This document shows positions 2,131 through 34,524 of a DNA stretch of 64,000 nt, piece after piece. The stretch is from positions 1-64,000 of the forward strand of contig JACRMR010000002.1 in assembly GCA_016214895.1 (NCBI GenBank), given 5' to 3'. This stretch comes from Candidatus Zhuqueibacterota bacterium (GTDB lineage: Bacteria > Electryoneota > RPQS01). Position 1 is the first letter of the stretch. The number at the start of each line of letters is the position of its first letter. A program made the translations under genes and the position numbers. Under the pieces are notes generated by a model. It saw nothing but the letters and a program-made list of their open reading frames with translations, had not been told where the DNA came from and did no database searches.

Positions 2131-2150
2131 CGTTTACCGCCGAGGTAGGT

Positions 2151-2175
2151 CCCCCGACCTGCCCGGAATCGGGGG
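2151..2175 (+). terminator. GC hairpin (CCCCCGA...TCGGGGG) 20 nt after the stop of the P-loop gene; possible terminator, weak U-tract
   Basis: 7-bp perfect inverted repeat read directly. The downstream sequence is T/C-rich rather than pure T. Confidence 0.3.
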
Positions 2176-2180
2176 TATTC

Positions 2181-2450
2181 CTCTTCCTCGCGGCGGCACT
2201 TGTCTCAAAGTGCCCCGCTCGGGCAAATGCGTGAACGTGGATGGGTTTCGCCGAGCGGGTCGGATGATGACATCCAACGCCGCGAAGTCGAATACGAATC
2301 ACGGTCGCGGCGGCACTTGTCTCCAAGTGCCCCGCTCGGGAAAGTGCGTGCACGTGGACGGGTTTCGCCGAGCGGGTCGGATGAAGGCATCCAACGCCGC
2401 GATTCTCCTTCCTCGCGGCGGCACATGTCTTCATGTGCCCCCTTCGGCAA
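2181..2450. repeat. tandem array (2.3 copies; periods 117 and 108 bp) of a structured repetitive element with two conserved hairpins
   Basis: Units begin at 2189, 2306 and 2414 with cgcggcggcac. Hairpin A: GGCACTTG-tctc-CAAGTGCC (2195-2214, 2312-2331, 2420-2439). Hairpin B: CCCGCTCGG-(~27 nt)-CCGAGCGGG (2214-2259, 2331-2376). Copy 3 carries T>A in the left arm and A>T in the right arm, preserving pairing. Confidence 0.75.
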
Positions 2451-2822
2451 CACCTGTGAGCGCGTATACGCCACGCCGAAGCCCGATGAAAATGCCTCTC
2501 GCATTTCCCTCCCGCGCGATAGCTTGATGTATGCCATCACCGGACAGCCGGGCAGTGCCTCTCGCTCCATTTCTGGTAACTCGTTTACGAATAATAGGTT
2601 ACGACCTTTTCCTTCTTTCCACTTGCTTATTGCCCAAAAATGTTGTATATTAGGCTCCAAATGAATTCTGAAATATTCATTAAGGGCACAATTAGTGATA
2701 TCAATCCTCCATTCAGACGTATTTATGATACTTGTTCGCCGACACTACGTATTCCGCCCTACTCCTTGTTTTTCCATCAGTAAACCAGTTCGTTTGGTCA
2801 TAAAATATTTTCATCGACGAGC

Positions 2823-2873: not shown

Positions 2874-3686
2874 ATGCAGCTCTTCACCGTCGATGTCTTC
2901 ACCGACAAGCCCTTCTCCGGCAACCCGGCGGGCGTGTGCGCAATGGAGGCCCCGCTCGATCCGGCGCAAATGCAGCGCATCGCGTCGGAGCTGAACCTCG
3001 CCGAAACCGCGTTCCTCTATCCCATTTCGGAATCGCCGCTGTTCACGGAAGGGCAGGGAGGGTGGCATCTGCGCTGGTTCACGCCCGCCGTCGAGATCAA
3101 TCTGTGCGGACATGCCACCATCGCCGCCACGCATATCCTCGAACAAACCGGCCGCATCGCCCCCGACTCCTTGGTCCACTATCAAACCAAATCCGGGGCG
3201 CTCACCGCCCGTCGCGTCGGCGACAAGTTCGAGCTTAACTTCCCCGCGGTCCGTGTCGAATCGCGACCGCTGTCCGCCGAGGCCATGCGCGCCCTCGGAG
3301 TTACTCGCGTCAGCTTCAGCACCGGCGGAAACTGGCAATTGGCGGAACTGGAAACCGAAGACCGCGTGCGGATGCTCAGACCCGACGTCCGCGCCCTGTA
3401 TTCCCTCGGCATCGGCAACCTGATCGTTACCGCCCGGGCCTCGACCGCGCCCTTCGATTTCGTCATGCGCGTCTTCGTCCCCGCCTTCGGCATCGATGAA
3501 GATCCCGCCACCGGCGCCGCCCACTGCGTGCTCGCGCCCTACTGGTCCGCCAAGCTGAAACGATCTCCGCTGCTCGCGTGGCAGCTGTCCAAACGCGGCG
3601 GCTTCGCCGAATGCGAACCGCACGGTGACCGTGTCCTCATTCGCGGCGCCGCCGTCACTATGCTTTCCGCCGAACTGAACGTCTAA
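2874..3686 (+). CDS. PhzF-family phenazine-biosynthesis-like isomerase/epimerase (270 aa)
   Basis: N-terminus MQLFTVDVFTDKPFSGNPAGV..., LNLAETAFLYP, RWFTPAVEINLCGHATIAATHIL. These are classic PhzF/YddE family motifs. Confidence 0.85.
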   Translation: MQLFTVDVFTDKPFSGNPAGVCAMEAPLDPAQMQRIASELNLAETAFLYPISESPLFTEGQGGWHLRWFTPAVEINLCGHATIAATHILEQTGRIAPDSLVHYQTKSGALTARRVGDKFELNFPAVRVESRPLSAEAMRALGVTRVSFSTGGNWQLAELETEDRVRMLRPDVRALYSLGIGNLIVTARASTAPFDFVMRVFVPAFGIDEDPATGAAHCVLAPYWSAKLKRSPLLAWQLSKRGGFAECEPHGDRVLIRGAAVTMLSAELNV

Positions 3687-3715
3687 GCTACGCCTCCTAT
3701 TTAGAAATCGCACCT

Positions 3716-4066
3716 ATGCAAGTCCTCACCACCGACGAGAAAGACGTCATCGTGATTCATCTGCACGGCCGCATCACGGGTGTGCAAGACACGGATGATT
3801 TTCACAACGTGATCGAAACCATCCTCACGAGCGACTTCAAGAACGCCGTGCTGGATATCAAAGGCGTGGACTGGATGAATTCCACCGGCCTCGCGCTGCT
3901 GGTGCGCGCCTATACGCAACTGCACGAAGCCGGATGTCGGATGCACATCGCCGGAGCCTCGCCGGCCGTGCAGACCGTCCTGCACACCACCAAGTTGGAC
4001 AGCGTCTTCGGCCTCTTCCCCAACGTCGCCGAAGCCGCCGCGGATCTGCGCCAAACCGTGGCTTAG
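3716..4066 (+). CDS. STAS-domain anti-sigma-factor antagonist (SpoIIAA-like), 116 aa
   Basis: Size and pattern (IHLHGRITGVQDTDDFHNVI..., GVDWMNSTGLALLVRAY) are typical of STAS/SpoIIAA proteins. The stop is 2 nt before the next start. Confidence 0.8.
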   Translation: MQVLTTDEKDVIVIHLHGRITGVQDTDDFHNVIETILTSDFKNAVLDIKGVDWMNSTGLALLVRAYTQLHEAGCRMHIAGASPAVQTVLHTTKLDSVFGLFPNVAEAAADLRQTVA

Positions 4067-4068
4067 CC

Positions 4069-5094
4069 ATGTGGCGCGCGCGGATCTGCCCGCTGCTCAT
4101 TGTCGCCGCACTGCTGAGCGCCGCGAGTCGCGTGCCGGCCGTCGTCGAAGTGGAACCCAATGACAATAACTGGCAAGCTAACCCGGTGGTCTGTGGCGAC
4201 ACGGTCATCTGTGCCGTCCTCAGCAGCGGCACCCCTGCGGACGTCGATAATTTCCGCTTCACGGTACTTGGCCCCGACTCCGTCCTGTTGACAACCTATT
4301 CCTGCTTTGCCTCCGTCAACACCTTCCTGATTCTCTACGACAGCAACGACTCCATCGTCGCGACCGACAACGACAGCGGCCCCGGCTATTGCAGTGAGAT
4401 CCGCTATCGCACGCCCGGCCCCGCAACCTATGTCGCCCGCGTCATGCGCACCCTGCCGACCGTCGATTCCGTGTACTCCCTGACGATCTCGTGCCTGAAT
4501 CCGCCCCCGCAGGAATACGATCTTTGCACCACCCCGCGGATTATCGAAAGCCTGCCTTATTATAATGAAGGCTCGACCTACGGCGCGACCCATCAGGCCG
4601 GCACGGCGGCGCCCGACGTCTTCTATCGCTTTCACAATTACACCGTCGCCAACTACGATATCACGGTTTGCGCTTCGACGTGGGACGCGCGCGTGGGCCT
4701 GCTCTCCTACTGCCACGGCGGCTGGGGTGACGACGAGTCCGTCGGCTGCGGTCTTGGCGCGGCGCTCACAACCTACGGCCTTCCCATCGGAGATTACCTG
4801 ATCATCGTCGAAGGCGTCGCCGCGAATCAACAGGGAGATTTCTCTCTCGAAGTCGCCGCCGACCTGCCGCCTTGCCCCGCCCCCGATGCCGTCGTGATGT
4901 GGCAAGTCGGAGGGTATCCCTTCCTCGAATGGCCCGATCTGGTTGGACCCCAGTCCTTCGCGGTCTGGAACTCCGCGTCACCGGACGGCCCCTGGGAGCA
5001 TCTCGGACTCTCACCGTTCTCCTACTATCTCGATTCCCTCGGCTACAATCCCAGCCGCCGATTCTACCGCGTCACCTCAATCTGTCCGTGGTGA
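4069..5094 (+). CDS. secreted Cys-rich protein with a pre-peptidase-C-terminal (PPC)-like domain; ends in the unusual C-terminus ...RRFYRVTSICPW
   Basis: Signal peptide MWRARICPLLIVAALLSAASRVPA. EPND motif. The PPC-like block (DVFYRFHNYTVANYDITVCAS...GDYLIIVEGV...GDFSLEV) is paralogous to domains in 40573-43143 and 46882-49551. The internal start at 4069 is chosen over the ORF-track start at 3934, which overlaps the STAS gene. Confidence 0.7.
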   Translation: MWRARICPLLIVAALLSAASRVPAVVEVEPNDNNWQANPVVCGDTVICAVLSSGTPADVDNFRFTVLGPDSVLLTTYSCFASVNTFLILYDSNDSIVATDNDSGPGYCSEIRYRTPGPATYVARVMRTLPTVDSVYSLTISCLNPPPQEYDLCTTPRIIESLPYYNEGSTYGATHQAGTAAPDVFYRFHNYTVANYDITVCASTWDARVGLLSYCHGGWGDDESVGCGLGAALTTYGLPIGDYLIIVEGVAANQQGDFSLEVAADLPPCPAPDAVVMWQVGGYPFLEWPDLVGPQSFAVWNSASPDGPWEHLGLSPFSYYLDSLGYNPSRRFYRVTSICPW

Positions 5095-5388
5095 CGCCCC
5101 GCCGCGGCGCCTCAAGTTTAATCTCGAACTCGCCCGTTATCGCCGCCCCCCCGGCAACACGCCCCACGCGTGTGGCGCCATGTGCCCAATCGGGTAAGGT
5201 CCGTAACCGGGCGAGGCTCAGCGCCGCTCAGCACTTCCAATCGTCTCTTCGGCGCGCCTTTCGTCGAATTACATGACATATTGTATCCGTTCATATATGT
5301 CCAATGCTATACATGAATTCTATTTAGTATAGTATAGGCCTTGATTTCGCCGGGTCCGTTACCTATCTTCAAGTACCAAGTGAGATTC

Positions 5389-5422
5389 TTGACAGCTTGC
5401 GTACACAACCTGAAGATGGAGT
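5389..5422 (+). promoter_or_regulatory. possible promoter (-35 TTGACA at 5389-5394) upstream of 5433
   Basis: Perfect -35 hexamer. The -10 is weak (GAAGAT). Confidence 0.3.
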
Positions 5423-5432
5423 GATATACCCC

Positions 5433-7160
5433 ATGCGAATGATGTATGTTTTGGCTCTTGCCCTTTGTATGAGTTGGACCCTGGCGATCGCGCTGCCGCC
5501 GGCAGTCCAGTGGGAGAAGCAGTACGGACCGGGAGCGGCTGGTGAATTCGGTCAAGCGGTGATCCAGACCGCTGACGGCGGTTATGCCGTCGCCGGTGTG
5601 ACGGACTTCCTCGATCTGTTCGGGGATTTCATGCTGCTCCGACTCGACGCCAACGGCGACACCCTCTGGACTCGCATCTATGTCGATTTGGCCGGTGAAC
5701 AGTCGCCGCGGGCGCTGTTCCAAAAACCGGATAACGGATTTGTGATCGGCGGCCAGCATAACGACTTCATGTCCGGCGACGCCGATTATCGTTTGATCGA
5801 GACCGATGCCGCCGGAAACCTCGTCGGTACGCATACCTACGCGGATCCCAATTACGACCTATGCGCCGACATGATCCCGACCGCTGATGGCGGCGTCATG
5901 TTCGTCGGCACGCGCGATGTGTCCGGTGTCATGCAGGCGAACGTGCAGAAGGTCGATAATGCGTGGAATCTCGAGTGGGATTCCACCTACGCCTTCTTTC
6001 CCACCGGGTCGAATGGTGCCGCCGATATTCGCCAAACCGGTGACGGGGGCTACGCATTGGCGGGAACCTTTCAGAACGTGGATTCGACGAAGATCTTCCT
6101 CGCGAAGATCAACGCACTCGGGTTTACGCAGTGGGCGGTTCTGCTCGATCCCTACGGGATGGAATGGGGATACTGCCTCGAATTGGCTGGAAGCGGGTTC
6201 GTCGTCGGCGGCATGGCCGACACCGGCGGCCCGGACCTCTATGACGCGTGTCTGATCGCGACCGATGGCGCCGGAACCCTGCTCTGGAGTGGTACTTACG
6301 GTGGAGCCGACGTTGATTGGGCCCGCGATCTCAGTGCCACGCCTGACGGCGGGTTGGTAGCGACCGGTTACAATGTCGAGGGCTTCGACGATTATACCTA
6401 CATCTTCAAGACGGATGGCAGCGGTATTGAATACTGGTCCGTACTCCTCGGTGCCGCATCGTCCGATGAGGGCCGATCCGTTCGTCCGACCGCTGACGGA
6501 GGCTACGTGGCGACCGGACTCCGTGCGCGTCCCGATGCCGAGGACCAGAACATCTACGTCGTGAAACTCATCGCTGACGTGCCGCTGCCGGTGGAACTGC
6601 TCGCCTTCGATGCTCGGATCGTCGGTGATGGCATCGAGCTCTCCTTCACCACGGCGGCTGAGACCAACACGGCCTATTTCGAGATTCTGCGATCCGCCGG
6701 CGCTGACTTCGCCGCGATCGCCAGACTCGAAGGCGCTGGGAATTCGACCACGGAGCGGCACTACTCTTTCGCCGATCAGCGCGTGAATCCGGGGACGACC
6801 TATCGCTATTTCCTCGCCGACATCGATGCCGACGGAAACCGCACTGAGCATCGCGATCGTATGCAGACCGTGACCTTCGGCGGAACCGCCGAGCTCCCCG
6901 CGGATTTCGCGCTGTCGGCATTTCCCAATCCGTTCAATCCCGGAACCACTGTCGAATTCGCCCTCCCGGAAGCGTTGCGAGCCACCGTGAAGGTGTTCGA
7001 TCCGGCGGGCAGACTCGTCCGCACACTGGCCGACAACGTGTTCCCCGCCGGCAGCCACCGCGTTGCTTTCGCGGCGGCCGGTCTGCCCAGCGGAATCTAT
7101 CTCGTCCGAGTCGAAGCCGGGGAATATTCCAAGATCGCGAAGCTCGTCCTGCTCAAGTAA
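5433..7160 (+). CDS. secreted repeat (beta-propeller-like, TADGGY repeats) protein with T9SS C-terminal sorting domain
   Basis: Signal peptide MRMMYVLALALCMSWTLAIA. Repeated TADGGY/TPDGG motifs. C-terminal ~80 aa (FPNPFNPGTTVEFALP...VKVFDPAGRLV...SGIYLVRVEAGEYSKIAKLVLLK) matches the T9SS type-A CTD pattern shared by five other proteins here. The ATG at 5433 is preferred to the TTG at 5397. Confidence 0.8.
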   Translation: MRMMYVLALALCMSWTLAIALPPAVQWEKQYGPGAAGEFGQAVIQTADGGYAVAGVTDFLDLFGDFMLLRLDANGDTLWTRIYVDLAGEQSPRALFQKPDNGFVIGGQHNDFMSGDADYRLIETDAAGNLVGTHTYADPNYDLCADMIPTADGGVMFVGTRDVSGVMQANVQKVDNAWNLEWDSTYAFFPTGSNGAADIRQTGDGGYALAGTFQNVDSTKIFLAKINALGFTQWAVLLDPYGMEWGYCLELAGSGFVVGGMADTGGPDLYDACLIATDGAGTLLWSGTYGGADVDWARDLSATPDGGLVATGYNVEGFDDYTYIFKTDGSGIEYWSVLLGAASSDEGRSVRPTADGGYVATGLRARPDAEDQNIYVVKLIADVPLPVELLAFDARIVGDGIELSFTTAAETNTAYFEILRSAGADFAAIARLEGAGNSTTERHYSFADQRVNPGTTYRYFLADIDADGNRTEHRDRMQTVTFGGTAELPADFALSAFPNPFNPGTTVEFALPEALRATVKVFDPAGRLVRTLADNVFPAGSHRVAFAAAGLPSGIYLVRVEAGEYSKIAKLVLLK

Positions 7161-11057: not shown

Positions 11058-12308
11058 ATGGCGGCTTACCAGAAACTGACTCCCCCGACCGCGGGCCATG
11101 CGATCACCACGGCCGGAAATCGCTTGAATGTCCCCGACGACCCGATCATTCCGTTCATTGAAGGCGACGGCACCGGCCGCGATATCTGGAAAGCGAGTCG
11201 CCGGGTGTTCGACGCCGCGGTACAGAAGGCGTACAACGGAAAACGCCGCGTCGAATGGTTTGAAGTCTATGCCGGCGAGAAGGCGCTGGGAGTCTATGGC
11301 GAAAACGTCTGGCTGCCGGACGATACGCTCACCGCGATCAAAGCCTATATCGTGGCGATCAAAGGCCCGCTCACGACTCCGGTCGGCGGGGGGATCCGGT
11401 CGCTGAATGTCGCTCTGCGGCAAGTGCTTGATCTGTATGCCTGCGTGCGGCCCGTGCGCTGGTTCACCGGCGTCCCGGCTCCCGTCAAGCATCCGGAAAA
11501 GCTGAACGTGATTATCTTCCGCGAGAATACGGAAGATGTCTATGCGGGAATCGAGTGGAAATCCGGCACGCCGGAATGCAAGAAGGTGCTCGACTTCCTG
11601 AATAACGAGATGGGGAAGAACATCCGCGCCGACAGCGGGATCGGCATCAAGCCGATCTCCAAGGAAGGCACATACCGCATCGTCCGCAAAGCGATCAAGT
11701 GGGCGATCGCCAAGAAGTTATCGTCGGTTACGCTGGTGCACAAGGGCAACATCATGAAGTTCACCGAAGGCGCCTTCCGCGACTGGGGCTACCAGTGCGC
11801 GCGCGAAGAATTCGGTGAGCAGACGGTCAGCGAGCAGGAATTGTGGGATGCGCACGGCGGCAAACTGCCGGCCGGAAAGGTGCTGATTAAAGATCGCATC
11901 GCCGATTCGATGTTCCAGCAGATTCTGCTGCGGCCCGACGAATACGAAGTGCTCTGTACGCCGAATCTGAACGGCGACTATCTGTCCGATGCCTGCGCCG
12001 CGCAGGTCGGCGGCTTGGGACTGGCGCCGGGCGCGAATATCTCCGATTTCTACGCGGTGTTCGAAGCCACGCACGGTACGGCGCCGAAGTACGCGGACCA
12101 GGACATGATTAATCCCGGCAGCGTGATCCTGTCGGGGGTCATGATGTTCGAGTATCTGGGCTGGCCGGAAGTCGCAGATGCCATCGTGCGCGGGGTGGAC
12201 GGCGCGATCAAGAACAAGCGCGTCACCTACGACCTGCACCGGCAAATGGAGGGCGCGACCAAGCTCAAGACCTCCGAGTTCGCCGACGAGATTATCAAGA
12301 ATCTGTAA
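11058..12308 (+). CDS. icd: NADP-dependent isocitrate dehydrogenase (416 aa, prokaryotic homodimeric type)
   Basis: Full-length similarity pattern to E. coli-type Icd: same length, N-terminal ...[15 protein letters not shown]..., Icd-type phosphorylation-loop region, C-terminal ...[11 protein letters not shown]. Confidence 0.95.
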
Positions 12309-12451
12309 GGCGCGGCTGACGGATTCCGGGCGGGTAACGCGCGTCGGCGAGGTGATGGTCGCGCACGCTGATCGCCGAGGAGGGACTGTGTCCCTGCCGG
12401 AATCAACCGCCCATCGCGTCCAGGTGACTTCCGCAATTCCGGCGGAGTATG

Positions 12452-12556
12452 GAGACCCCGCTCGGGGTTTGAAGTGAGACATCGGCCGTGCACTGGGGAG
12501 AATTCCCGACGGGGCACTTGGAGACAAGTGTCGCCAAGAGCATTCCGGGCGGATGA
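12452..12556 (-). repeat. dispersed copy, in inverted orientation, of the 2181-2450 repeat family, located in the icd 3' UTR
   Basis: The reverse complement gcgacacttgtctccaagtgccccgtcggga...gtgcacg...ccccgagcggggtc aligns with unit 2 (gcggcacttgtctccaagtgccccgctcggga...gtgcacg...ccgagcgggtc). The 20-nt core is identical and both hairpins are preserved. Confidence 0.65.
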
Positions 12557-12610: not shown

Positions 12611-12647
12611 CCCCTCACGAGGTGAGGGGAGGCTGTTTTGTTTTTGA
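12611..12647 (+). terminator. rho-independent terminator of icd (CCCCTCAC-gag-GTGAGGGG + TGTTTTGTTTTTG)
   Basis: Perfect 8-bp GC stem followed by a U-rich tract. Confidence 0.75.
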
Positions 12648-12873
12648 TCGGTTGCGGACTCGTTGTCCCGCGCCTGATCGTCGTTTGTTTGCGCTACTTC
12701 GCAGACGGGAGATCTCTATCTCTCCGCTTTTTGTTACGCTGTTGCGGGCACTTTGGTTTCCGGTCCCCCGATAATTCACTTCACTCGGGTTCCTTACCTG
12801 TATAGACGTTGAAATGCTTTTCTTGTTGCAGGCTCCCCCACGTTTTTCGAGCCGCCACCGCGAGGACTTCATC

Positions 12874-32465: not shown

Positions 32466-32596
32466 CCCCCCCCGGCCCCCCACAGGATGTGGGGGGAGGG
32501 CGGAGGCCGATTCCGGCGGGGTCCAGCGGATGCGCGAAGCCGCGCCCCCCCCGGCCCCCCACAGGATGTGGGGGGAGAGCGGAGGCCGATTCCGGC
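32466..32596. repeat. two tandem copies (period 79 bp) of a G/C-rich ~52-bp element containing the hairpin CCCCCCACAGG-a-TGTGGGGGG
   Basis: Copy 1 32466-32517, copy 2 32545-32596. Sequence ccccccccggccccccacaggatgtggggggag(g/a)gcggaggccgattccggc. Lies between the rtcB stop and the response-regulator start on the minus strand. Confidence 0.65.
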
Positions 32597-32635
32597 CGCG
32601 CGGGGACGCACGGCTCGGCGGGCGGGAATCGCGTG

Positions 32636-34090
32636 CTATCCCTTGATCCCGCCGACCGGACGCAGCTTCGCCACGGGTCGCGCCAGACCAACTCCGGCGG
32701 CGACCGCCACAACATCATCCACGTTCTTGTAAACTTCCGGTTGTTCTTCAGCCAGTGTTGACCCGGTACGTGCCTGCACGATGATCCCGCGGGCCGCCAG
32801 TTGTTCCCGCACCTCGTTGGAGCGCCGCAGCTTCAGTCCGGCATTACGCGACATCAGCCGACCCGCGCCGTGCGGCGCGGAGCCGAAGGATTCCGTCAAC
32901 GCGTTCGGTTCGCCGACCAACACCCAGGATGCGCGGCCCATGTCGCCCGGAATCAGCACCGGCTGACCGACTTGCCGGTACGCGAGCGGCACGAGCGGAT
33001 GCCCGGCCGGGAGTGAACGCGTCGCACCTTTACGATGCACGCACACGCGGGCTTCGTCGCCGGCGACGAGGTGTTGCTCGAACTTGGCAATGTTGTGACA
33101 GACGTCGTACACCAGGCCGAAGCCGCAGTCTTCAATGCGTCGTTTCATAATTTCCGCGAAGACCTGCATCCAGTGCCAGCGCATGGTCAACCGATTCACC
33201 CACGCGAAGTTCGCCGCGCATTTCATTGCCGCAAAATACCGTTGGCCCTCCTTGCTGGTGAGCGGAGCACAGGCTAACTGCCGATCGGGCAATTCAATCC
33301 CGAACTTGCTGGCCGCTCTGTCCATCACGGGCAGGAAATCCGTGCAGACCTGATAACCGAAGCCGCGCGAACCTGAATGCACCATGCAACAAACCTGGCC
33401 CGGAAACAGTCCGAATACTTGAGCGACGCGCTCGTCGTGAATCTCCTCAACCACCTGGACCTCGACAAAGTGGTTGCCCGCGCCCAGCGTGCCGAGCTGC
33501 TCGAAGCCGCGTTCCCGCGCGCGCGCCGAGATTTCGCCGGGGTCGGCTCCGGCGAGCGCCCCTTGCTCTTCCATGTGCAGCGGATCATCCGCCCCGCACA
33601 CCCCTCGCCGGACGGCAAACTGAGCGCCGGTCAGCAAGACCTGCTCGAATTCCGGCTTTGTCACCCGCAGCCCGCCCTTGGATCCCACGCCCGTCGGAAT
33701 CCGCGCGAACATCGTGTTGATCAACCGCTCCAGCGGCCCCTGTACTTCCTGCCAGTGCACCGCGGTTCGCGTAAGATTCACTCCGCAGTTGATGTCGTAG
33801 CCCACGCCGCCCGGAGAGATCACGCCCTCGGTGGCATGGAAGGCCGCAACACCCCCGATCGGGAATCCATACCCCCAATGCATGTCCGGCATCGCTAGGC
33901 TGCACCCGACGATGCCCGGCAGAGTGGCGACATTCGCCACTTGGGTCGGCGACATGTCGGCCCGGAGCTGGCCGAACAGAGAATCGTTCAGGAACATGAT
34001 CCCGTCCGTCCGCATGTCAGCGCGGCTTTCCTGCGGAATTCGGTAGCGGAACGGCCCGGCGCGCTCGATGGTTGCTTGTGGTTGTGCCAT
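32636..34090 (-). CDS. rtcB: RNA-splicing ligase RtcB (484 aa)
   Basis: Conserved RtcB motifs (GYDINCG, GNHF, SAPHGAGR) and full-length co-linearity. Confidence 0.95.
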   Translation of the reverse strand: MAQPQATIERAGPFRYRIPQESRADMRTDGIMFLNDSLFGQLRADMSPTQVANVATLPGIVGCSLAMPDMHWGYGFPIGGVAAFHATEGVISPGGVGYDINCGVNLTRTAVHWQEVQGPLERLINTMFARIPTGVGSKGGLRVTKPEFEQVLLTGAQFAVRRGVCGADDPLHMEEQGALAGADPGEISARARERGFEQLGTLGAGNHFVEVQVVEEIHDERVAQVFGLFPGQVCCMVHSGSRGFGYQVCTDFLPVMDRAASKFGIELPDRQLACAPLTSKEGQRYFAAMKCAANFAWVNRLTMRWHWMQVFAEIMKRRIEDCGFGLVYDVCHNIAKFEQHLVAGDEARVCVHRKGATRSLPAGHPLVPLAYRQVGQPVLIPGDMGRASWVLVGEPNALTESFGSAPHGAGRLMSRNAGLKLRRSNEVREQLAARGIIVQARTGSTLAEEQPEVYKNVDDVVAVAAGVGLARPVAKLRPVGGIKG

Positions 34091-34524
34091 TAGAGATCGC
34101 AGACAAAGTAAATCTTTACCATCCCCGTCTCCTTAGTAACGCGGAAGCCGTGGTACGTGACCGCTTTGACGTCGTATTTCAACTCGTGGCGCGTCGGGTC
34201 GAGGGGTTCGCCACCCAGAACTACCTGTAATTCGTTACAATCTTTAGAGTTACAATTTGTCATGTATTTTACCGAGCATGGCAACCAGCGTCTCGCAGAT
34301 ATAAGATAAATAATTTCATTAAGATAGGCGATCATCCGCCGATCTACATCTTCGTCAGCTATCCACAACGGAAACTGTTCTCGCTCTTCAATCGTATCAA
34401 GCGGAACCAACTGAGCCACCAGTCCAAGAGAGGCATTGGCCAGTGCCTCCAATTCGTCGGCGCCCCAAGCCTCAACTGCGAGGTCGCCGGAGTGGTCAAC
34501 TGCCCGGAATCGTTTGTCGATCAT
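34090..34524 (-). CDS. archease (RtcB activator), 144 aa
   Basis: Archease signature RAVDHSGDLAVEAWGADELEALANASLGL. Stop overlaps the rtcB start (TAATG), giving the canonical archease-rtcB pair. Confidence 0.8.
   Translation of the reverse strand: MIDKRFRAVDHSGDLAVEAWGADELEALANASLGLVAQLVPLDTIEEREQFPLWIADEDVDRRMIAYLNEIIYLISARRWLPCSVKYMTNCNSKDCNELQVVLGGEPLDPTRHELKYDVKAVTYHGFRVTKETGMVKIYFVCDL

Follow-up and report, generated by a model that had tools for sequence, protein, structure and literature searches.

The question raised by the DNA downstream of icd, the gene for NADP-isocitrate dehydrogenase, in the first 64,000 nucleotides of contig JACRMR010000002.1 from a Candidatus Zhuqueibacterota bacterium (assembly GCA_016214895.1; this whole stretch is hereafter called the window) is what kind of palindromic element occupies its 3' untranslated region (3' UTR). 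A preliminary description had read positions 12452-12556 as an inverted copy of a repeat located near 2.2 kb, with a shared 20-nt core and two retained hairpins, and had suggested a dispersed element resembling either repetitive extragenic palindromes (REPs) or miniature inverted-repeat transposable elements (MITEs). The analysis reported here indicates with high confidence that positions 12503-12538 on the minus strand are one unit of a REP family, part of a REP/REPIN-RAYT system of KSB1/Calditrichota bacteria, in which REPINs are inverted doublets of REP units and RAYT denotes the REP-associated tyrosine transposase. An element of this REP-RAYT kind is known; here it occurs in a little-studied phylum.

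The resemblance between the two regions was anchored by the 20-mer CACTTGTCTCCAAGTGCCCC, which lies on the minus strand at 12511-12530 and recurs on the plus strand exactly at 2314-2333, with one mismatch at 2197-2216, and with three mismatches at 2422-2441, two of which form a compensatory T>A/A>T stem pair. Zero chance matches to this 20-mer are expected from dinucleotide shuffles, and the identical core that had been described was borne out. The match claimed for the whole of 12452-12556 was substantiated for a much shorter stretch. When the reverse complement of 12452-12556 was aligned locally with one unit of the 117-nt tandem array (2188-2402, as called by Tandem Repeats Finder), significance was limited to 34 nt with 32 identities, one mismatch and one 1-nt gap (GGCGACACTTGTCTCCAAGTGCCCCG-TCGGGAA against GGCGGCACTTGTCTCCAAGTGCCCCGCTCGGGAA). 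The alignment score was 56, whereas 1000 dinucleotide shuffles averaged 15.6 and reached at most 29. With the core removed, the best remaining match was a 9-mer, CCGAGCGGG, whose score of 18 was equalled in 58 of 1000 shuffles. The homologous element is 12503-12538 (-), a 36-nt palindromic unit, and the rest of 12452-12556 has no significant similarity to the array. The first of the two hairpins is retained with one G>A change at the base of its stem. The second amounts to a short stretch of the unit's 3' flank in inverted orientation; it is plausibly the remnant of a partner unit and is not significant alone.

Aligned units shared the consensus CGCGGCGG-CA-NNNG-TCTY-CNNN-TG-CCCCGCTCGGGA, which forms an 8-bp hairpin. 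The 5' head is unpaired and conserved as CGC-S-G-M, appearing as CGCGGC or CGCCGA across all aligned units. The base of the stem, GGC/GCC, is fixed while its middle covaries, and the loop is pyrimidine-rich and begins with TC. The 3' flank divides the family into subfamilies, type A carrying CCCCGCTCGGGA and type B carrying CCCGGAATC. A hairpin scan recovered type A as CGCGGC-GGCACTTG-TCTC-CAAGTGCC-CC and type B as CGCCGA-GGCAGGTG-TCTT-CACCTGCC-CGGAATC, together with several more stem variants of the same architecture. In the seed alignment 97.4% of cells were paired and five of the eight pairs showed changes on both sides, statistics that are biased insofar as this alignment was picked for pairing. 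A less biased test used sites chosen solely by the 9-nt 5' motif CGC[CG]G[ACG]GGC, with GGC sites as controls. A perfect 8-bp hairpin was present at 87 of 243 motif sites (36%) and at 7 of 476 controls (1.5%); the motif-selected sites comprised at least 12 recurrent stem sequences, and their loops were nearly always TC-initial. The combination of a fixed head, stem base and loop with a covarying mid-stem fits a protein that reads structure plus a few specific bases.

Further copies were sought by scanning a 25-nt degenerate core over 185,579 species genomes, each represented by one genome. The core was found at 16 sites in 13 contigs of the Calditrichaeota DeMMO2_36 metagenome-assembled genome (MAG) and once in a second MAG. 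Conservation among these copies extended over about 28-36 nt only, amid unrelated surroundings. A covariance model, R1, was built from 35 units and replaced a fuzzy regular-expression census because the latter missed a known copy. R1 found eight units across three intergenic regions of the window and, in the 14 loci obtained from the core scan (L001-L014), 40 units at E <= 1e-5 among 44 matches at E <= 0.05. The model misses the B unit at 12373-12404, in which the stem register is one nt shorter; this unit was recovered by the flank-only pattern GCCGAGG-N10-28-CCGGAAT, which has two matches in the 64 kb against 0.02 expected, one in each REP cluster. The repeat is therefore a dispersed family rather than a local duplication, as had been proposed: its units occupy three intergenic regions in the window and 13 contigs of a related MAG, and they recur in what is, if the genome of the window is counted, a third MAG.

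The array near 2.2 kb has the order B(+), A(+)/D(-), A(+)/D(-), A'(+), where D stands for a diverged unit (Table 1), and each 117-nt "repeat unit" is an inverted, REPIN-like doublet of an A(+) unit and its diverged (-) partner. The partner at 2249-2288 has A flanks (CGCGGCG...CCCGCTCGG) but another stem, TTGGATG/CATCCGA. This doublet organization accounts for the four-way junction into which the 117-nt units fold (z = -4.4 for the unit listed with 2249-2288 and -5.0 for that listed with 2366-2405). Inverted doublets or clusters were also seen in L003, L004, L007, L010 and L013, as doublets in L003 and L004 and as arrays in L013 and L010. Throughout the window and the MAG loci the units lie between same-direction or convergent genes; none lies between divergent genes, and none lies inside a long gene except the RAYT gene itself. 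They are intergenic and mostly downstream of genes, where both orientations occur, so that the orientation-independence proposed earlier was upheld. Naive open reading frame (ORF) calling places 24 of 48 units inside ORFs, nearly all of which are short ORFs made by the repeats (<=201 aa), the RAYT gene or overlaps with gene ends. The array itself is traversed on both strands by ORFs of 151-154 aa, 2200-2664 (+) and 2205-2660 (-), which are GC-rich repeat artefacts that could be mis-annotated as hypothetical proteins.

The family was linked to a transposase by locus L010, in which a RAYT ORF carrying a HUH motif (YVLMPDHFHALV) and a tyrosine motif (YIHANPVRRGL...YLWSS) lies between two family units in inverted orientation, at 3261-3303 (+) and 3955-3997 (-). 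The L010 product matched PF01797 (Y1_Tnp) at 32.4 bits (cut-off 23) and the NCBIfam equivalog NF047646, "REP-associated tyrosine transposase", at 96.1 bits (cut-off 80). RAYT homologues were also found in a candidate division KSB1 bacterium, namely P0240 (MBI5058672.1, on a 521-kb contig) and P0187 (MBI5059004.1, on a 96-kb contig), and NF047646 scores for these two and for the L010 and L004 proteins were 88.9-100 bits. The HUH histidines, the tyrosine and the NP motif were invariant among the RAYTs aligned. The accession numbers of P0240 and P0187 are within about 830 of MBI5058170.1 (P0001, on a 525-kb contig), a candidate division KSB1 protein with 100% identity to the icd product of the window, and from this proximity the two RAYTs and the icd gene appear to belong to one MAG submission. 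The sole match of P0240 in the PDB was 4ER8, the E. coli TnpA-REP, and the NCBI pipeline already names Calditrichota homologues "REP-associated tyrosine transposase".

A scan of metagenomes with the RAYT alignment gave 80 loci, on all of which R1 was run. Among the 40 loci of close relatives (>=45% identity), 13 have an R1 unit (+) at most 20 nt upstream of the gene and another (-) at most 55 nt downstream; a further four have a unit on just one side. R1 matches were found in none of the 37 distant RAYT loci (L062-L098), 30 of which have <35% identity to P0240. The RAYT-flanking units in L019 and L020 have exactly the boundaries of the window's A unit, from CGCGGCGG to GCTCGGGA, and B units like those of the window flank the RAYT genes in L031, L046, L042 and L050; the units at L046 closely resemble the window unit 32585-32624. 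At these RAYT loci the units have their 3' flanks turned towards the gene, and the doublets of the window have the same topology without a gene. The REP half of the earlier suggestion was corroborated by this inverted bracketing of RAYT genes. The best scores of P0240 were with RAYTs flanked by A units and those of P0187 with RAYTs flanked by B units, by small margins, and a pairing of the two subfamilies with RAYT paralogues is suggestive only.

Two of these RAYT genes have features of their own. Within the L010 gene (3344-3949) three REP-derived units lie in frame between the HUH and tyrosine motifs (3624-3735) and add about 35 residues (AGHVKNEDTCRREEPEHVRNEDTCRRVKMED...), a hint of feedback between repeats and transposase. 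The second RAYT of the DeMMO2_36 MAG (L004, 5232-5726) has on both sides an unrelated repeat that measures about 90 nt and contains the hairpin GACCCTGCCG...CGGCAGGGTC; within 4990-5890, two copies lie upstream of the gene and one downstream, all in the same orientation. A separate repeat family at this gene agrees with the usual pattern, in which each REP family has a RAYT of its own.

The family shares most of its properties with the REP/REPIN-RAYT systems of Proteobacteria, or "REPtrons", represented by the E. coli REPs and bacterial interspersed mosaic elements (BIMEs) with TnpA-REP/YafM (PDB 4ER8), the REPINs of P. fluorescens and the REPs of Stenotrophomonas (PMC2817692, PMC3116915, PMC3479197). 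These likenesses include extragenic palindromes of 20-40 nt with an unpaired conserved head, compensatory stem changes, inverted doublets and mosaic tandem clusters. They extend to a transposase gene between two inverted units, a transposase of about 160 aa that has HUH and catalytic tyrosine motifs (PDH[LF]H ... Y[IM]HxNP) and passes the NCBIfam RAYT model, and several REP subfamilies and RAYT paralogues per genome. The preference for positions downstream of genes has likewise been reported for REPs (PMC3733652). The differences are the head, CGC-S-G-M rather than the GT(A/G)G of REPs (Nunvar 2010; Di Nocera 2013), the host, KSB1/Calditrichota of the FCB group, and the long, subfamily-specific 3' flank (CCCCGCTCGGGA or CCCGGAATC). 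REP copy number is classically >100 per genome, and the count for the source genome here covers 64 kb only.

Self-complementary repeats that lack GTAG are known at other Y1 transposases, as TIRYT or "TIRtron" systems and as non-proteobacterial subclasses of TnpA-Y1 class 2 (Di Nocera 2013, PMC3733652; Quentin 2018, PMC6006769), of which 2.4 and 2.6 occur in Cyanobacteria and Bacteroidetes (Quentin 2018, PMC6006769). The present family is like the TIRYT/TIRtron systems in that Y1 genes are flanked by GTAG-less self-complementary inverted repeats and in forming moderately abundant families with dimers or clusters. The three in-frame units of L010 recall TnpA-REP subclass 2.4, in which repeat units also lie inside the transposase gene (PMC6006769). 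Judged by motifs rather than phylogeny, the set found here (DH[LF]H, W[RQN], Y[IM]HxNP, about 160 aa) resembles that of the proteobacterial subclasses 2.2/2.5 more than that of 2.4 (NH[IFV]H) or 2.6 (NH[LIV]H). A Y1 HUH enzyme and imperfect single-stranded hairpins at element ends are also found in IS200/IS605 elements (IS608, ISDra2). Unlike these, the present RAYT proteins score far below the IS200 cut-off (22-30 bits, cut-off 55), and the hairpins have multiplied across the genome on their own, not as the ends of a multiplying transposase gene.

Several observations weigh against the REP-RAYT assignment. The classical GT(A/G)G head is absent, with no GTAG or CGTC tag in the aligned units, although this was not taken to disqualify the family from the broader class, because some RAYT/TIRYT systems also lack GT(A/G)G (PMC3733652, PMC6006769). 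The A unit at icd is imperfect, with three head changes and one broken base pair, and this copy may have lost its mobility. The fold of the whole icd 3' UTR was not better than that of shuffled sequence (z = -1.2), and therefore no larger RNA structure is claimed. No RAYT homologue was detected in the 64-kb window by tblastn with the L010 RAYT, nor a Y1 transposase by Pfam among nine window ORFs near the repeats, and the link to a cognate RAYT in the source genome rests on relatives and on accession-number proximity.

Under a mechanism modelled on the E. coli and Pseudomonas systems (PMC2817692, PMC3116915, PMC3479197), the unit would fold as a hairpin in single-stranded DNA, as in E. coli TnpA-REP, and its cognate RAYT, a Y1 HUH nuclease, would recognize, cut and rejoin that hairpin. 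By the same analogy, the RAYT would insert copies of one unit or of an inverted doublet between genes, for the most part at downstream positions, and would leave no target-site duplication. The 117-nt units at 2.2 kb would then be doublets amplified in tandem in the manner of BIMEs. Any effect on icd would be a side effect of residence and not the reason for the existence of the sequence.

A more specific proposal is offered tentatively: the units may represent an undescribed GTAG-less REP superfamily specific to KSB1/Calditrichota, with its own RAYT clade and at least two co-resident subfamilies that co-evolve with RAYT paralogues, A (CCCCGCTCGGGA) with P0240-like and B (CCCGGAATC) with P0187-like enzymes. 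It would have a recognition code of its own (CGC-S-G-M head, GGC/GCC stem base, TC-initial loop) unlike that of E. coli TnpA-REP. Among the best literature matches listed, RAYT or REP terms were never paired with KSB1 or Calditrichota. REP/REPIN-RAYT systems have been studied almost entirely in Proteobacteria, and a clear case in the uncultured KSB1/Calditrichota lineage shows that these persistent intragenomic replicators, which are inherited vertically, range more broadly than was known. The different head motif offers a second recognition code with which the TnpA-REP structural model can be tested. The family also explains odd intergenic repeats and spurious ORFs in KSB1/Calditrichota MAGs, for example the 154-aa ORF at 2200-2664, and is likely to break assemblies.

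At icd, the 3' UTR holds a small, partly decayed mosaic cluster of A and B units in both orientations, situated, as the preliminary description had placed the repeat, between the stop codon and a terminator-like hairpin (Table 1). The motif ATTCCGGSCRG has five matches in the window against 0.34 expected, and two of them are within this 3' UTR; R1 gave no match at 12322-12352. The possible A-type remnant at 12439-12467 has a 3' flank that faces that of the A unit (12503-12538) and is complementary to it. The hairpin and T-rich tail at 12611-12645 are likely the icd terminator, and because the REP cluster lies upstream of them, the icd transcript probably includes the cluster in its 3' UTR. An intrinsic terminator at 12513-12532 was rejected, since this hairpin has no T run and the terminator scan reports only 12611-12629 and 12707-12724.

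Relatives with icd proteins 82-91% identical and conserved icd-to-TonB-receptor synteny were then compared. The spacer between the two genes is 505 nt here and 276, 246, 200 and 109 nt in the relatives, the value of 276 nt for the closest (P0002, 91% identity) being derived from gene coordinates only. No R1 unit was found in the three spacers for which DNA was available (L015/L016, L017 and L018; 109-246 nt), and in L017 a comparable terminator directly follows the icd stop codon. Unit presence thus differs at orthologous icd sites, and the empty sites for which the earlier account had suggested a search were found. The REP cluster of about 250 nt looks like a lineage-specific insertion between the icd stop and the terminator, although the relatives are too diverged for insertion boundaries to be drawn. 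One of these relatives, assembly GCA_964406405.1 (CAYORN01; L005 and L018), is labelled "uncultured Alphaproteobacteria". Its icd is 82% identical to that of the window, it has the icd-to-TonB-receptor synteny and it carries units of the REP family described here. The label seems mistaken; the genome is probably a KSB1/Calditrichota relative. A post-stop motif, ATTCCGG-S-CGGGT-W-ACG, is common to 12309-12335 of the window (GGATTCCGGGCGGGTAACGCG) and 4252-4275 of L018 (GATTCCGGCCGGGTTACGTCC), and could be an old B-type remnant of both lineages.

The position of the cluster bears on the alternative that the hairpins are host regulatory elements, such as a 3' UTR stabilizer, a partial terminator or a protein-binding site, their spread being incidental or ancient and RAYT activity now irrelevant. 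This alternative, though unlikely, deserves serious consideration. It agrees with the placement of units, which in the loci examined follow genes and are absent from the spacers of divergent gene pairs, and with the probable transcription of the icd cluster. In E. coli, REPs act as dual 3' UTR terminator-stabilizers (bioRxiv 10.64898/2026.03.23.713779). It is opposed by the relatives that keep the icd-to-TonB-receptor synteny and have no units, by the occurrence of both orientations, so that the RNA differs between copies, and by the decay of the icd units; moreover, the bracketing of RAYT genes accounts for the family without a host function. A host role is nevertheless compatible with the REP-RAYT explanation. 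E. coli REPs can stabilize upstream mRNA and attenuate read-through (bioRxiv 10.64898/2026.03.23.713779), and by analogy the hairpins of the icd cluster could impede 3' exonucleases or modulate read-through from icd. For icd itself the finding is modest: a lineage-specific hairpin insertion of about 250 nt in the 3' UTR, which might tune mRNA fate.

That the repeat encodes a structured small RNA or a cis-regulatory RNA motif is very unlikely. The stable four-way junction of the 117-nt units and the covariation of the stem are what such an RNA might be expected to show, but both strands fold equally well, only about 36 nt are conserved between loci with differing flanks, and the icd copy lies in antisense orientation to those of the array. 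There was no match to Rfam at gathering or permissive thresholds: in the window only a tRNA reached the gathering score, and at E <= 10 both repeat regions gave chance-level matches.

The MITE half of the earlier suggestion, a deletion derivative of a DDE-type insertion sequence (IS) with terminal inverted repeats and target-site duplications, scarcely merits retention. Its short, intergenic, multi-copy character and its two orientations would suit a MITE. The conserved unit, however, measures no more than about 36 nt and forms a hairpin itself, the sequences between paired units are unrelated among loci, and no DDE transposase or parent IS is associated; Y1 HUH transposase genes are bracketed instead. 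Target-site duplications had been named as something to look for, and no flanking direct duplication was evident around the aligned units. Chance similarity, or local duplication in one window, is favoured by the short length of the match and nothing more, and is practically negligible in view of the shuffles and of an identical 28-mer in another MAG. The census and alignment likewise disposed of the outcome that the preliminary description had regarded as fatal to its claim, namely no further copies and no significant similarity. A CRISPR (clustered regularly interspaced short palindromic repeat) array was rejected on account of irregular spacing and the lack of spacers, and integron attC sites on account of the lack of cassettes or an integrase.

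Table 1 REP units and neighbouring features in the window (positions numbered from its first nucleotide; scores are for model R1).
Feature	Position	Strand	Basis and details
B-type unit, head of the 2.2-kb array	2134-2173	+	22.1 bits, E 0.0024 (R1 match; unit 2138-2173); also flank-only pattern
A-type unit, array copy 1	2189-2224	+	45.2 bits; member of the seed alignment
Diverged unit, inverted partner of 2189-2224	2249-2288	-	19.3 bits, E 0.011 (R1 match; unit 2249-2284)
A-type unit, array copy 2, core identical to icd copy	2306-2341	+	46 bits
Diverged inverted partner of 2306-2341	2366-2405	-	17.4 bits, E 0.035 (R1 match; unit 2366-2401)
A-type unit, array copy 3, compensatory stem CACATG/CATGTG	2414-2449	+	49 bits
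icd (NADP-isocitrate dehydrogenase) coding sequence	11058-12308	+	ORF list; Pfam PF00180; stop TAA 12306-12308
Possible decayed B-type unit (weak call)	12322-12352	-	GATTCCGGGCGGGTAACGCGCGTCGGCGAGG; by eye against B consensus
B-type unit	12373-12404	+	CGCCGAGG-AGGGAC-TGT-GTCCCT-GCCGGAATC; flank-only pattern
Possible A-type remnant, hairpin largely lost (weak call)	12439-12467	+	CCGGCGG...CCCCGCTCGGGG; direct sequence reading
A-type unit, core of the finding	12503-12538	-	CTTGGCGA-CACTTG-TCTC-CAAGTG-CCCCGTCGGGAA; hairpin 12513-12532; 27.9 bits, E 8e-5
Probable decayed remnant (weak call)	near 12541-12552		Within the icd 3' UTR mosaic
Terminator-like hairpin with T-rich tail	12611-12645	+	CCCCTCAC-GAG-GTGAGGGG; hairpin 12611-12629, T run
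B-like unit in the spacer downstream of rtcB	32585-32624	-	CGCCGAGCCGTGCGTCCCCGCGCGGCCGGAATCGGC; 21.9 bits, E 0.0026 (R1 match; unit 32585-32620)

Further observations were made on the surroundings of the units. The first 2,870 positions of the window have a lower GC content (46-54%) than the window as a whole (60.6%). They contain an ORF of 387 aa without a Pfam match (382-1545) and a P-loop ORF of 163 aa with a weak MMR_HSR1 match (1639-2130), and the REP array is followed by an ORF-free, AT-rich segment (2500-2870, about 38% GC). This region, 1-2870, may be an islet of horizontal origin, at the edge of which the REP array sits.

The B-like unit near rtcB adjoins a 52-nt direct repeat (32466-32517 and 32545-32596; 98% identical, 79-nt spacing), located downstream of the rtcB-archease operon (32636-34524, -). 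Each copy of this repeat consists of a hairpin, CCCCCCAC-AGGAT-GTGGGGGG, plus G/C runs. A similar module, a B unit plus CTCCCTCCAC..GTGGGGGG, is present in L013 in tandem with a 243-nt period, and the B unit and the 52-nt hairpin repeat may together constitute a larger composite element. Lastly, two intergenic A units (5389-5428 and 5767-5806, 49-51 bits) were found on L099, a 7.7-kb "viral" contig from IMG/VR, which is either a misclassified bacterial fragment or a provirus of the KSB1/Calditrichota lineage.

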